A stretch of DNA of 64,000 nt from Candidatus Algichlamydia australiensis (GTDB taxonomy: Bacteria; Chlamydiota; Chlamydiia; Chlamydiales; JAJFMI01), in the NCBI GenBank assembly GCA_033977065.1, contig JAXCHI010000003.1, positions 416,001 to 480,000 on the forward strand. The letters run 5' to 3'. The position numbers were made by a program, and so were the translations under genes. The notes below the pieces were generated by a model. That model did no database searches, was not told the DNA's origin, and saw nothing but the letters and a program-made list of their open reading frames with translations. Positions 54,906-59,126 of the stretch are shown piece after piece. The stretch's first letter is position 1; the number at the start of each line of letters is the position of its first letter.

Positions 54906-54956
54906 TCATCCTACTCCTGGTTGGGGAGCTTAGTCAACAGATAAATAATAGATAGT

Positions 54957-55005
54957 CGAGGCTTTGACGTTAAAAAGAATAAAAAAATTTTCTGCCACAG
55001 ATTAC
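54957..55005. repeat. 49-bp dispersed repeat, copy 2
   Basis: Matches 23884-23932. Confidence 0.75.
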
Positions 55006-55089
55006 TCGCCTCTGTTTTTTCAATTGACTGTTAAGTTTTTAAGTGAAAAATGGGTGTCACCAAGTAAATCTTAAATTTAGGAGTCTAAG

Positions 55090-55224
55090 ATGAAATTGAT
55101 TACTTTAAGCCTCGCTCTGTTTTGTGTGTGCGCAGGATTTTTGAGTGCTACGTATGCGAAAATTTGTCCAGAGGCAATCAGCACAGACTGCCCGTTTGGT
55201 AAAGGAAATAAAGGAAAAAAGTAG
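55090..55224 (+). CDS. 44-aa secreted cationic Cys-containing peptide (below the ORF-track cutoff)
   Basis: AGGAG RBS; MKLITLSLALFCVCAGFLSATYA-KICPEAISTDCPFGKGNKGKK; followed by a hairpin. Confidence 0.7.
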   Translation: MKLITLSLALFCVCAGFLSATYAKICPEAISTDCPFGKGNKGKK

Positions 55225-55240
55225 ATGGTTTTTTGCTCTC

Positions 55241-55265
55241 AGGACTCTCTTTTAAAGAGAGTCCT
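55241..55265. terminator. Hairpin between convergent genes
   Basis: AGGACTCTCTT-TTA-AAGAGAGTCCT. Confidence 0.6.
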
Positions 55266-55325
55266 CGGTTTGATTTCAAAAAGTTTTGCAGTCTCCTAGC
55301 CAATAGAAGACGGATTGCTACTTTT

Positions 55326-55746
55326 TCAGGTGTATGATTTTATTATACGTCTGAAGTTTATAACAGAGGGAAAAAGAGGCTCTGGCAAATTATCAAGATC
55401 AAACCACTCCCATGCTTCGCATTTGTGTGGCTCCATTACTTGAGGTGTACCAGTAAAACTTTCTACAATCATATGAATCGTGATGTAGTGCTTTTCCTCT
55501 TTTGCGAAGATCTCTGTTGTCCAGGGGCCGGGCTTTACTTTTTGCCGTAAGACCTGTCTCTTCTAAGAGTTCGCGCACTGCGCACTCTTCTGGCGTTTCG
55601 CCAAATTCAAGGTGCCCTCCCGGTGGAGCGTAGGCACCTGTTCCGTGGGCATTGATGCGCTTTCCAAGAAGAATTTTTCCTTTTTGTATTACATGAACAC
55701 CAATATCAACCAGTGGCTTTTTTGAAATTGTTGTTGCTTCTCTCAT
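55326..55746 (-). pseudogene. NUDIX hydrolase (MutT/NUDT15-like) with a frameshift near 55540
   Basis: Nudix box [23 protein letters not shown]; the natural C-terminus (PGPWT...KHYIT...[11 protein letters not shown]) continues in another frame to TGA at 55326. Confidence 0.8.
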
Positions 55747-56201
55747 TTTAAAGGAATCTTTTTGTTTTTATGTTTTTGTTTCACTATTTGATAACTTTCA
55801 GAAATTAAATGTGCTATTTGTGAGAATGATTTTTCTGAAGGATTGCAGATGGAGACCCAACACATCCAGCCGTAAACGGGATGGGGTGTTAATTGATTAA
55901 GTGAAGTAAAGTCGTAAGGTCCTTCGATAACTCCTCCTTTTGAAGGGCGTTTGGGGATAACTTCAAACAGCTCCAAAAAAGTAGGTTTTGAAATTCCAAA
56001 ATTTAATCGAAAAACGCCTTGTCGATCTAGGCTTGAAGCCTTGTCATTTTGCCCATCCTTCTCTTTGATGGTGCAAAAATAGGTGCCTCTTGGGCTTAGG
56101 TTATTTGGGTTATAAAAAAAGCTTGTTTCGCCCCAGGAATCAATCACTCGCAAATCATCAAACGTTTTTAATAAGTAGCAGGAAATAGCATTTGGGTTCA
56201 T
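55743..56201 (-). CDS. Hypothetical protein, DUF6194-like
   Basis: [37 protein letters not shown]. Confidence 0.7.
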
Positions 56202-56293
56202 CAGTTTATTACTTTAGCATTTGAATCTAGAGAGATCAACTTCTTGATTTAGAAAAAAAGACAGGATATAGTTTGTTTTCTTAAAAGGTGTTT

Positions 56294-57163
56294 ATGAAAA
56301 AACTTGTTTTGTTTCTAATTTTAGTATTTTCATTAAAAGCAGAGGAAAACAAAATTATTTATCTTTTGTCTCCTCCTCGCTCTTGCTCAACTCTTTTTAT
56401 GAGGATAATTGCAAATCATGAGAGGATGGCAGTTTTTAACGAACCATCTCAGCGCTCTTACGTAAGGGTGCATCACCCGGAAGTAGAGCACTGGTGGCGA
56501 GAAGATGGCCCCAAAACTCACAAGGAGATGCAAAAGCTCCTCTATGAGCAGAGAAAAGAATCAAACGTATTTGTGAAGGAAATGAACTTTGCTGTTTATG
56601 ATTTGCTTCCAAATGAGCTGGAGTTCCTCCAAGATCCTAACGTCCATTTTGTTTTTTTAGTTCGCAATCCCCATGCCGTTGCAATTTCTATCTATAAAAA
56701 ATTAGAAAGTGTCTGGGATGATATGGATGATATCATGGGCATGAAGCAGTTATATGAGACATTTCAGCTTGCTAGAAGAGAGTCAGCAAATCCAGTAAGA
56801 GTTATTTTCAGTGAGCAAATTTATGAAAACCCAGAGAGAACAGTAAAGACTTTTTGCGACTGCTATAATTTTCCATTTAAAGAGAGTTTGCTGGAGTGGC
56901 ATCCTTATCCTGATGATTTTACTGGGGTAGAAGAGTGGCATGAATTTAAACGTTCTGATCAATTGTTTCACTGGCATGGAAATGCGATTCGTAGTAGCGG
57001 GATTGGTCGCCCCCAAGAGTATGAGCTAGACGAGTTGGGAAGACCCACATTTAATGAAATTAAAAATGAGTCTGACCGCGAAAAAACACGAGCCGTTTAT
57101 GAGAGGCAGCTTATTTGGTACAAAAAGTTTGTCAATAAAACTGGTCCATATTTAATCAAATAG
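56294..57163 (+). CDS. Exported sulfotransferase-like P-loop protein
   Basis: SPPRSCSTLFMR, FNEP, VFVKEM, FLVRNP; signal peptide. Confidence 0.75.
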   Translation: MKKLVLFLILVFSLKAEENKIIYLLSPPRSCSTLFMRIIANHERMAVFNEPSQRSYVRVHHPEVEHWWREDGPKTHKEMQKLLYEQRKESNVFVKEMNFAVYDLLPNELEFLQDPNVHFVFLVRNPHAVAISIYKKLESVWDDMDDIMGMKQLYETFQLARRESANPVRVIFSEQIYENPERTVKTFCDCYNFPFKESLLEWHPYPDDFTGVEEWHEFKRSDQLFHWHGNAIRSSGIGRPQEYELDELGRPTFNEIKNESDREKTRAVYERQLIWYKKFVNKTGPYLIK

Positions 57164-57225
57164 TCACAAACGAATATAGACTTGGAGCGTTTTGGCAAAG
57201 CTTTGCCAGGAATACGAACAGTTTT

Positions 57226-57256
57226 TTCAGTTGTACGATTAAATCGTACAACTGAA
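57226..57256. repeat. Palindrome immediately after the Bro-N stop codon
   Basis: TTCAGTTGTACGAT-TAA-ATCGTACAACTGAA (14-bp arms). Confidence 0.9.
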
Positions 57257-57257
57257 T

Positions 57258-58091
57258 TCATTCTATCTTAGGGCCATCAATAAAATTTGACGAGCTTAGT
57301 ACTTTTTTCCCGCTCTCCTTTTCGAGTTCATGTCGCGCATTTCCAGCAATTGTTCCGCCTGCTATAGCTGCTTCTCTGTTCTCTTCGAACCCTTGGGCAT
57401 CACGTTGAACGGATATTTCTGAAGTTGATGCTTCACCCAACATGGTAAAAATCAGCTCGAGATCTGTCATATGATCTCTTAAGTTTTCTCTTTTTAGGTT
57501 TTTAATTTTTTTATGTTCAGATGGTTTTACTCCAAAAGTTGCTTCAGAAATTTCAGCAGTAAGAATAGCATATTCTTTCTGCTTTTTTACACCTCTCTTT
57601 TCCCATTCCCCAGTAAGTTGCTCGCGAGTGGCAATCCCTCGCATCCTTCTTTCAATCCATTCATCGGGGTAGCCCTTTGCTTTGTAAAGTGCTCGCGTGC
57701 GCTTCGTTGCAAGCTCTGGATTTTCAATTTCTTTGATTCTTTCAAAGCCGACTCTTGCAAGCCATCGTTTTAGAGGTTCAGCTTTAGGCGATGGAATAGA
57801 TTGAATAATCCTAAAAAGCGTTTCTGTGTTGGCGGTATCGGTAGCCCTCATTCGTCCATCCGATGCTACTAATTTCAACCGTACGATTTTATCGTACGGT
57901 TGGATAAACCCTTCATCTTCAGTAAGTTTCTTCTTCAAGTCAGACCAATATCTTTTAGGGGTTAAGCTATCTGTTAATGTTTCAATGACATCAACGATAG
58001 AAAAATACCACTCGTCGTTGTAGATGATTTTTCGAATCCGTTTGCCCCGAAAAACTGCAATTTTGCCTGATTTTTGAATCTCTTGAATCAT
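57258..58091 (-). CDS. Bro-N domain (phage antirepressor-like) DNA-binding protein
   Basis: IRKI...EWYFSIVDVIE.LT, YWSDLK, RIIQSIPSPKAEP.K.WLA, NLRDHMTDLELIF; GGAG before ATG 58091. Confidence 0.88.
   Translation of the reverse strand: MIQEIQKSGKIAVFRGKRIRKIIYNDEWYFSIVDVIETLTDSLTPKRYWSDLKKKLTEDEGFIQPYDKIVRLKLVASDGRMRATDTANTETLFRIIQSIPSPKAEPLKRWLARVGFERIKEIENPELATKRTRALYKAKGYPDEWIERRMRGIATREQLTGEWEKRGVKKQKEYAILTAEISEATFGVKPSEHKKIKNLKRENLRDHMTDLELIFTMLGEASTSEISVQRDAQGFEENREAAIAGGTIAGNARHELEKESGKKVLSSSNFIDGPKIE
57876..57902. repeat. Intragenic 27-bp palindrome encoding QPYDKIVRL
   Basis: CAACCGTACGAT-TTT-ATCGTACGGTTG. Confidence 0.95.
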
Positions 58092-58124
58092 ATTTTTCTC
58101 CAAAAGCGACTAAGGTTCAAAAAA

Positions 58125-58180
58125 AGGATAACTGTTAAGTTTGTTTTTTTCAACCGTACGATTTTATCGTACGGTTGAAA
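58125..58180 (-). promoter_or_regulatory. Bro-N promoter (TTGAAA-N17-TATCCT) with a palindromic operator overlapping -35
   Basis: -35 at 58153-58148 and -10 at 58130-58125 on the minus strand; the palindrome at 58148-58180 contains an exact copy of 57873-57902. Confidence 0.75.
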
Positions 58181-58181
58181 T

Positions 58182-59126
58182 TTACAAGCGGATGTAGACT
58201 TGTGCGCCTTTTGCGGGGCGCTCGTTTTGATGGTCCCAGTGGGGTGTTTTGGCAAAGTCTTGCCAGATGCGTGGGTAGTCCTTGCGGCCGTAAAGGCGAT
58301 CAAGCGCTTGTTTGGGCTGCGCTGGGATCCAGATGCGGGTTGGGCCAAAAGCGCACCGTTTGCGATTTTGAATTTGAGAAGCTGCGTAGGTGTCATTAGG
58401 ATAATCGCGGCGAAAAAAAGGAGAGCGATGGTAGTAAGTCTCTTCCTCTTTTCTAAAAAAGAAAATATCAATGAAGGGAAAGGTCCACTCGCTTCCCATT
58501 TTTTTTCCATTTAGCGGTGAGAGTTTATAAAAGTCACCTTCATCGAGGTAGTGCAGGGCAATGCCCTGGCCAAGTAGCTCTTTTTTTAAAGAGAGAAGGG
58601 TGGTCTCATCTTGCTCAAGCATGTAGATATCGAGGTCATCATCCCAGGGGATGAGGCCTTTGTGGCGCACGGCTCCAAGCAGAGTGCCACCGCCTGCCCA
58701 GTAGGTAAGATCGTATTTAGTAAAAAGTTTGTCGACTTTTGCCATGAAATTATAGAGTTGTTTGGCAGTTTCTTTTGGGAGTGGAGGAATGTCGTGAATG
58801 GTTTTGGGAAGTTTTGCACACGCTTTTTTGATACGATGTGCAGAGATTTTTTTTGGCGCGTAGTGTTTGTATCCTGTGCGATTGGCGAGGCTGCCTAATT
58901 CTTTTTTTGTGAAAGAGCTGTTGTCAAGGATCACAATGGGAGTGAGGTTGTGGTAATGGTCAAGTGCTTCGATTTCTCTTTGAATTTGCTTTAGAGTTTT
59001 GCCCTTGGGGTTAAGAAGTGTGGCGTCTGTCTGTTTAGCCAATTTTTTGGCGTGGGCGGGAGCGTTAATGAGTAGGCGCGCTTGGAGCTGGGCGAGCAGG
59101 AGTAGGAGAGGTAGGTACTTCAGCAT
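58182..59126 (-). CDS. LicD/fukutin-family phosphotransferase with signal peptide
   Basis: GGTLLGAVRHKGLIPWDDDLDI, FIDIF, L.RLYG; N-terminus MLKYLPLLLLLAQLQA. Confidence 0.85.
   Translation of the reverse strand: MLKYLPLLLLLAQLQARLLINAPAHAKKLAKQTDATLLNPKGKTLKQIQREIEALDHYHNLTPIVILDNSSFTKKELGSLANRTGYKHYAPKKISAHRIKKACAKLPKTIHDIPPLPKETAKQLYNFMAKVDKLFTKYDLTYWAGGGTLLGAVRHKGLIPWDDDLDIYMLEQDETTLLSLKKELLGQGIALHYLDEGDFYKLSPLNGKKMGSEWTFPFIDIFFFRKEEETYYHRSPFFRRDYPNDTYAASQIQNRKRCAFGPTRIWIPAQPKQALDRLYGRKDYPRIWQDFAKTPHWDHQNERPAKGAQVYIRL

Follow-up and report, generated by a model that had tools for sequence, protein, structure and literature searches.

Why does a bacterial gene carry a palindrome within the codons of its own Bro-N domain, and why do related palindromes stand at both of its ends? 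The locus that raises this question lies in a 64,000-nucleotide stretch of the Candidatus Algichlamydia australiensis genome (contig JAXCHI010000003.1, positions 416,001 to 480,000 of the forward strand), referred to here as the window and supplying all coordinates given without a contig. The features on which the argument rests are the following.

54906..58181, no strand assigned: accessory stretch (NUDIX, DUF6194, sulfotransferase-like and Bro-N genes) between the sppA-like and licD genes
55324..55353, minus strand: fourth, degenerate palindrome copy, overlapping the stop of the frameshifted NUDIX gene and reading QTYNKIIHLK
57164..57216, minus strand: about 53 bp that duplicate the licD 3' end, diverged and with an internal deletion, immediately past the downstream copy
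57226..57256, no strand assigned: downstream free copy, 31 bp, starting 1 nt past the Bro-N stop
57258..58091, minus strand: gene of the Bro-N family; the ATG at 58091 gives 277 aa
57876..57902, minus strand: coding palindrome, 12-bp arms and 3-nt loop, codons 64-72 (QPYDKIVRL), inside the Bro-N domain
57915..57962, minus strand: codons 44-59, that is, residue 44 and the predicted second helix of a helix-turn-helix (45-59)
58125..58153, minus strand: promoter-like TTGAAA-17-TATCCT, its -35 hexamer forming the edge of the upstream copy
58148..58180, no strand assigned: upstream free copy, a 33-bp palindrome with 15-bp arms, starting 1 nt past the licD stop
58182..59126, minus strand: licD-family host gene, its stop codon abutting the upstream copy

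A preliminary description of the locus, made from the sequence alone, had reported three palindromes with the core GTACGAT-N3-ATCGTAC, and all three are where it placed them: exact core matches fall at 57233, 57881 and 58156, the internal palindrome encodes QPYDKIVRL within the Pfam Bro-N match, the 30 bp at 58148-58177 in the upstream copy recur exactly at 57873-57902, across the coding copy and its flank, and the downstream copy reads QLYDLIVQLKK on the gene strand. A 17-bp core is identical in all three, and the arms of the free copies are longer than those of the coding copy. The relaxed form GTACGA-N5-TCGTAC occurs at these three sites only in the 1.8-Mb genome, so the genome-wide repeat that the same description had considered is rejected; a search with both alleles over 24 arm positions found no further genome site at up to five mismatches beyond the copies listed. 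As single-stranded DNA the three palindromes fold with z scores of -6.2 to -8.1 (0 of 200 shuffles each), and the fourth copy, 1.9 kb from the Bro-N gene, has a score of -2.1. The upstream copy shares its allele, loop included, with the coding copy, and the perfect form of this allele was found in no other of the 176 loci compared below. The downstream copy probably keeps an older allele, because its arms are the same as those of the internal palindrome in three of the five closest GTDB homologues (L001, L002 and L005). The promoter proposed at the upstream copy is borne out as to its hexamers, with the -35 box at the edge of the copy, but the 9/12 consensus match is at chance level (2 found, 2.1 expected). 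The palindromes had also been judged not to be ordinary terminators, and the absence of a U-tract on the gene strand after any of the three leads us to reject intrinsic termination there; the downstream copy does, however, have a weak terminator-like score, on the plus strand only, behind the convergent sulfotransferase-like gene.

The gene itself is readily assigned. Residues 19-112 match PF02498 (Bro-N) at E 2.2e-9, with 38.2 bits against a gathering threshold of 25.6; the closest atlas clusters are all Bro-N, plasmid homologues are annotated as “phage antirepressor” or “Bro-N domain-containing protein”, and homologues are few in phage records (4 of 50,697). Searches with the protein returned no family from NCBIfam and no match among the sequences of solved structures. 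An in-frame TTG at 58103 is an alternative start that would add four residues. The product is predicted to consist of a winged-helix N-terminal domain and a helical C-terminal domain in a DdrC-like fold. The score of the licD 3'-end duplicate behind the downstream copy is reached by 0 of 5000 shuffles. Elsewhere in the accessory stretch, the NUDIX gene at 55330-55746 is split across two reading frames, an unrelated perfect palindrome of 25 bp lies at 55241-55265, and a repeat of 50-60 bp at 54957-55015 has dozens of copies in the genome, often beside perfect palindromes of 36-40 bp. Further dispersed palindromic repeats are present, as are small tandem clusters of other palindromes (G000:C3 613571/613612, 656396-656479 and 673907-673937; C4 304938/304970).

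Contigs of two sequencing runs, each a possible source of this DNA, cover the locus. One contig of run X1 spans the palindrome region with zero differences, and run X2 supplies a 305-bp piece containing both identical copies; the X2 contigs break at the 30-bp repeat, as expected in the assembly of such a repeat. Within the contigs of both runs, neither variant letters at the palindromes nor a joint across the copies was seen. Contig depth in X2 between 55392 and 60000 passes from 612 on the licD side through 303, 199 and 184 across the insert to 354, steps that may reflect strain mixture or amplification bias, and 57415-57613 is also covered by a deep contig that belongs to the homologue in another organism.

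The coding palindrome is a property of the family. We gathered 213 loci (80 GTDB, 7 + 27 chlamydial, 19 viral and 80 metagenomic), which after removal of duplicates left 176, namely, this gene and 175 homologues. When the best centre is sought up to 12 nt from the site, every one of the 176 reaches 8 or more paired bases out of 12 (8 pairs in 3 loci, 9 in 79, 10 in 44, 11 in 44 and 12 in 6), which confirms the statement of the preliminary description that homologues have different, but also palindromic, sequences here. The palindrome is codon-centred in 171 loci and shifted by 2 nt in five. Elsewhere in the genes 163 of 46,692 codon-centred positions reach 8 pairs, and in 163 of 171 genes the site outranks every other codon-centred 27-mer in symmetry. 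Symmetry forced by the peptide alone is rejected, since the 81 distinct 27-mers average 10.0 of 12 pairs against 6.2 for synonymous shuffles encoding the same peptide, 79 of them at p<0.05. Pairs 4-7 occur as three to four different Watson-Crick types with almost no mismatch. The constraint acts on DNA symmetry and not on an mRNA stem, because G-T and A-C mismatches are equally rare (18 and 16); an mRNA hairpin as the family's constraint, which lacks the G-U preference, is rejected, and a search of Rfam returned no family of note. Among related genomes, the Bro-N gene of a same-family genome (L109, G002:C15:15098-15280) stops at a C-run just past its palindrome, and a Bro-N contig of a same-genus genome (L108, G001:C162 end) ends shortly before it. 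The literature covered, which included few subscription papers, yielded no published coding palindrome or DNA target for the Bro-N family and no published link between Bro-N and DdrC.

What lies next to the palindrome in the protein suggests what the symmetry could be for. In a predicted model (pLDDT 86), residues 64-72 follow helix 45-59 and precede the wing strands; the helix, whose domain matches DdrC, Dachshund and Mbp1 domains, is predicted to be the second of a winged helix-turn-helix, with the motif order taken from PMC9303277. Some 50 bp separate helix and palindrome, and the palindrome base pair at plus/minus 6 varies with residues 44 and 47. Each helix type is paired with a half-site type, in classes that were set after the data were seen: YWSD with TCGGA (89) or TCGTA (45), YWSN with CGGTA (7), YWNK/YWRK and YIKK with GTCAC (11), and YWYK/YWYR/YWFK with GTCGA (6); 2 of the 176 rows, with a short or interrupted C-terminus, were left out of this comparison. 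On a tree of the C-terminal domain the modules are scattered, and sisters about 0.1 changes per site apart carry different ones; helix and palindrome are therefore exchanged as a module. Nine independent supported pairs on this tree gave 7.8 in the same direction and 0 in the opposite one (median p 0.008).

A finer correspondence is seen among the 140 genes of the main class (139 of them on the trees). R47 goes with T in 48 genes and K47 with G in 91, with one exception (139/140), and residue 44 predicts the palindrome base in every row. Arg47 is encoded by all six codons; the supported independent pairs for Arg/Lys47, two on the N-terminal tree and four on the C-terminal tree, are too few for significance. 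In 134 genes with YWSDLK, most synonymous positions between the helix and the palindrome are unlinked, the strongest link being at the codon of Ser50 (83%, versus 99-100%). This codon shows the R47 and K47 classes to be old lineages, and because it marks two such lineages, block inheritance could still be at work. The palindrome bases specify residues 65 and 70 as well, and the pattern could therefore arise from a contact within the protein; the main helix class occurs with two cores (TCGTA and TCGGA), and G-G mismatches in the outer arms are frequent. Covariation of helix and site is what self-recognition would predict, and linkage or protein-internal coupling could also produce it.

We posit, with a probability of about 0.5 and on the strength of these comparisons, that the protein's target is the palindrome in its own coding sequence, passed on together with the recognition helix, and that the end copies were shed or left over, one of them perhaps being co-opted as an operator. 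The nine codons would form a double-stranded DNA site recognized by the winged-helix protein they help to encode, probably as a dimer, and helix plus site would constitute one specificity module that is swapped between gene backbones, each allele bringing its matching site. A protein bound about 200 bp inside its own gene would most simply limit its own expression. The gene-end copies would be secondary and local, boxes shed or left behind as Bro-N alleles arrived and decayed at a hotspot of insertion, the downstream one keeping the older allele and the upstream one matching the present allele; with a common 17-bp core, all three would be bound, and the upstream copy may now act as an operator. 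The observations that this account draws upon are the DNA-level symmetry, the helix-site covariation and the module swapping, together with the rare flanking copies, the empty site and the excess of orphan boxes.

Three interpretations had been offered beforehand: (i) a three-operator autoregulatory loop whose binding site doubles as coding sequence, (ii) a cassette or gene-conversion system that varies this segment, and (iii) palindromes that mark the ends of a mobile unit. A dedicated three-site system, either a looped three-operator switch or silent cassettes feeding variants into the gene, would account for the identity of upstream and coding copies over 30 bp in an allele otherwise absent in perfect form, for the overlap of the upstream copy with a -35-like hexamer, and for the upstream arrays of other alleles at L157 and L220. 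The family, against this, offers little of the kind. A clear flank copy of the gene's own allele was found in 0 of 80 GTDB loci whose flanks were examined; an own core site lies within 200 bp upstream in 2 of 140 loci, and weak sites upstream of these 140 are not enriched, their mean best match being no better than that of controls. Family-wide promoter operators, strong or weak, are thus rejected, and the promoter at this locus is itself a chance-level match. Only 6 of 176 loci have any extra family-like palindrome: two paralogues (the extra palindromes lying within full paralogues), one relic gene, the L220 array, and this locus and L157 with bare copies. Donors beside the expressed gene are accordingly not kept across the family, free copies lack the helix codons needed for a whole-module swap, and the contigs of both runs show no variant letters. 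We regard a dedicated three-site system as very improbable. A three-operator loop could have arisen at this locus though it is not the design of the family. Of (i), then, a candidate binding site within the coding sequence that changes with the protein survives, and the loop as a family design does not; of (ii), the exchange of helix-palindrome modules survives, with the L220 array of old modules, and the donors are absent at most loci. Matching copies in the flanks are rare among homologues. At L220 the array consists of relic helix-plus-palindrome segments of different module types, 345-429 bp upstream of an intact Bro-N gene.

The gene does sit in an insertion, and the locus is an insertion hotspot. 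The search for empty sites in relatives that had been proposed found one in a same-genus genome (G001), in which licD is joined to the sppA-like gene over about 190 bp with no insert and no palindrome, and in which 8 bases of the left end of the upstream copy follow the licD stop directly (chance about 3e-4). An independent locus with another host gene, L157, repeats the layout: the host stop is fused to a box, two boxes lie upstream, and a diverged duplicate of the host 3' end carries another box, while a same-genus relative has neither box nor Bro-N gene there. These findings bear out (iii) as far as the insertion goes; the palindromes are not, however, mobile ends of the Bro-N family, because 170 of 176 loci have no extra palindrome. 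Other chlamydial Bro-N islets (L142, L143, L152 and L153) have direct repeats at their bounds and no box. Duplicated host 3' ends as a mark of the boxes are a weakened candidate, since other islets have flanking repeats without a box. At L289 (4395-4520, G363) the duplicated host-gene end is directly preceded by a long inverted repeat, each arm measuring about 60 bp.

Boxes also occur away from Bro-N genes. A scan of 401 genomes from the phylum gave 70 boxes, 31 of them outside any Bro-N match at E<=1e-30, compared with 1 of 54 occurrences of a control, a conserved coding motif 100 bp away, that fall outside gene matches (Fisher p 1e-8, kin not being independent); the box pattern was derived from observed alleles, and its reversal matched 7 times. 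Of the 31 outside sites, 30 were inspected: four are long N-terminal relics or broken genes below the cut-off, one is a CRISPR spacer, and five come from this locus and L157. The search of chlamydial genomes left one genome (G062) unscored. Some orphan boxes are embedded in long relics, others retain a handful of neighbouring codons, and others still are bare, paired in tandem or overlapping in a triplet. They incline weakly to gene ends: of 21 free or short-relic boxes, 10 have a stop within 35 nt, against 5.6 expected (p 0.018, sites not being independent). Many boxes persist without an evident reader, because 13 of the 25 genomes with an orphan box, incomplete as these genomes are, have no Bro-N match at E<=1e-30 and 12 have one. 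The box captured as a spacer in a CRISPR array (L252, G027:C2:39353) suggests that the Bro-N gene arrives on invading DNA. In one genome without a Bro-N match at E<=1e-30 (G334, L261 and L280), three bare boxes each stand 17 nt past the stop of a member of one repeated gene family. Box pairs in tandem, 34-39 bp apart and of mixed alleles, occur at L273 and L284, and at L287 (G111:C9, near 1472) three boxes that differ in allele overlap one another with a 21-bp period and have the outer hexamer in common.

Could the box be a mobility or recombination signal? A DdrC-like two-faced dimer or a host enzyme might pair boxes or cut their edges, so that modules are swapped, free boxes dropped and lone genes helped to insert at gene ends. 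The 8 bases of the box's left end at the G001 junction, the independent repetition of the layout at L157, the proportion of boxes outside gene matches relative to the control motif, the swapping of modules between near-identical backbones and the bridging and circularization of DNA by DdrC (PMC9303277) would all fit. A signal of this kind is nevertheless quite unlikely, given the 170 of 176 loci without an extra box, the four boxless islets with direct repeats, the absence of a joint across the copies in the contigs of the two runs, and a genome, 93% complete, in which no integron integrase scores over the family cut-off (TIGR02249, best 80.7 bits against 265).

The tandem and overlapping boxes invite another explanation, which dispenses with binding altogether and to which we give a somewhat low probability. 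Here the palindrome would be a self-correcting hairpin. Template switching would restore complementarity between the arms and alter the two together, the helix next to them would either co-evolve with whatever peptide results or simply be linked to it, and free copies would be the debris of hairpin-provoked copying errors, sometimes retained as RNA hairpins at 3' ends. The Bro-N coding palindromes do show concerted changes on both arms, as template-switch-maintained inverted repeats do, and short inverted repeats are homogenized by template switching in bacteria and in coding DNA, according to PMC5941160 and PMC8604942. The amino-acid consequences are likewise shared; template-switch events as described there are, however, scattered, whereas the Bro-N palindrome occupies one codon position family-wide and is tied to the helix type. 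Mixed alleles at L273, L284 and L287, the longer arms of the free copies at our locus, a quasi-palindrome in the licD remnant that turned perfect and the closeness of 10 of 21 boxes to a stop all speak for such a hairpin. It leaves unexplained the position of the palindrome immediately behind a helix in several families, the near-fixation of Arg/Lys47 for each site type although the codons are saturated, and the way relics shrink onto the hairpin while keeping family alleles. Hairpins, moreover, usually promote their own deletion.

Self-recognition by the encoded protein also has to be set beside systems already known. Rickettsia palindromic elements and nematomorph mitochondrial repeats are, like the Bro-N palindrome, translated inverted repeats (PMC6649704); as described there, the former are insertions that lose their identity over time, whereas the Bro-N palindrome is 27 bp in a fixed place, and the latter are long and scattered, whereas ours lies within a DNA-binding domain. 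Elements of the Rickettsia type are rejected here, with three genome sites, one of them coding, and a fixed codon position in homologues. The lambda origin in gene O and parS in parB place a binding site within the cognate gene, and type I restriction enzymes exchange specificity domains. Bro-N shares with these a cis site in the cognate gene and a swappable specificity module; in Bro-N, however, the site contributes codons to the putative binding domain and changes from allele to allele along with the helix. Integron attC sites contain two boxes as well as unpaired bases and measure at least about 57 bp. They resemble the free copies as palindromes at the 3' ends of clustered accessory genes; the Bro-N boxes, in contrast, are perfect palindromes of 27-33 bp derived from coding sequence. 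With no integrase over the cut-off and boxes too short and too perfect for attC, an integron cassette array is rejected.

The arrangement extends to other families, a generality that favours self-recognition. The same genome has six YhcG/DUF1016 genes and one RhuM-family gene (L242-L248), each with its own coding palindrome following a helix-like motif; G000:C1:6365 and C4:8067 likewise carry coding palindromes. One of the YhcG genes has a near copy upstream with its arm asymmetry swapped, and another a degenerate copy at its stop. Several of these palindrome genes are truncated or have an internal stop. In a wider survey of 24 YhcG loci, 9 without the helix-finding motif were left unscored, and in 14 of the 15 scorable genes a palindrome follows an equivalent-looking helix; a search of viral contigs confirmed no YhcG gene. 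E. coli dinD (b3645) has an 11/12 palindrome at codon 63, the best in its gene, and its product is weakly similar to the Bro-N protein at the C-terminus (hhalign E 5e-4, probability 31%), whereas the N-terminal sequence and the palindrome differ.

For the predicted fold, Deinococcus radiodurans DdrC (PDB 7qvb, 7udi, 8u0g and 8u1j) is the best whole-length match (Foldseek E 4.8e-6; VIA Z 12.0, 208 aligned, rmsd 11.3; N-terminal domain alone, Z 8.1, rmsd 3.5). It ranks first in three of four fold searches, well above unrelated rows, with Dachshund and Mbp1 domains behind; the N-terminal domain alone has no Foldseek match at E<=0.001, DdrC appearing weakly at E 0.71. The two proteins share 7-13% identity, and a profile of 40 Bro-N homologues found no DdrC chain at E<=1. 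According to PMC9303277 and PMC11347143, DdrC is a Deinococcus-specific, domain-swapped dimer with two DNA-binding faces, which senses breaks through contacts that are not sequence-specific and leaves its acidic winged helix unused for binding. The predicted resemblance supports a dimer able to bridge DNA. It also warns that the fold need not imply sequence-specific reading, and the non-specific binding reported there for the nearest fold, with its unused winged helix, counts against self-recognition. A broader conjecture, which we consider unlikely, combines the two: in Bro-N/DinD, YhcG and RhuM alike, alleles would encode their own target beside the recognition helix and swap both, and a DdrC-like dimer would pair the gene with shed boxes that serve as operators or landing sites.

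Genes of the Bro-N, DinD, YhcG and RhuM families are common and nearly uncharacterized. If the coding palindrome is the binding site, every allele supplies a predicted target together with a residue-to-base rule (Arg/Lys47 with T/G). The DdrC-like fold would connect a large family with a protein that has been called Deinococcus-specific. Even if the palindrome is neutral, a hairpin able to rewrite nine codons and scatter copies of itself over genomes would be a mutational process for which we found no description in the literature. Should the two-faced, self-addressed reading prove true, these genes would embody a natural, readable code of protein-DNA recognition, and lone genes would have a new means of self-regulation or spread.
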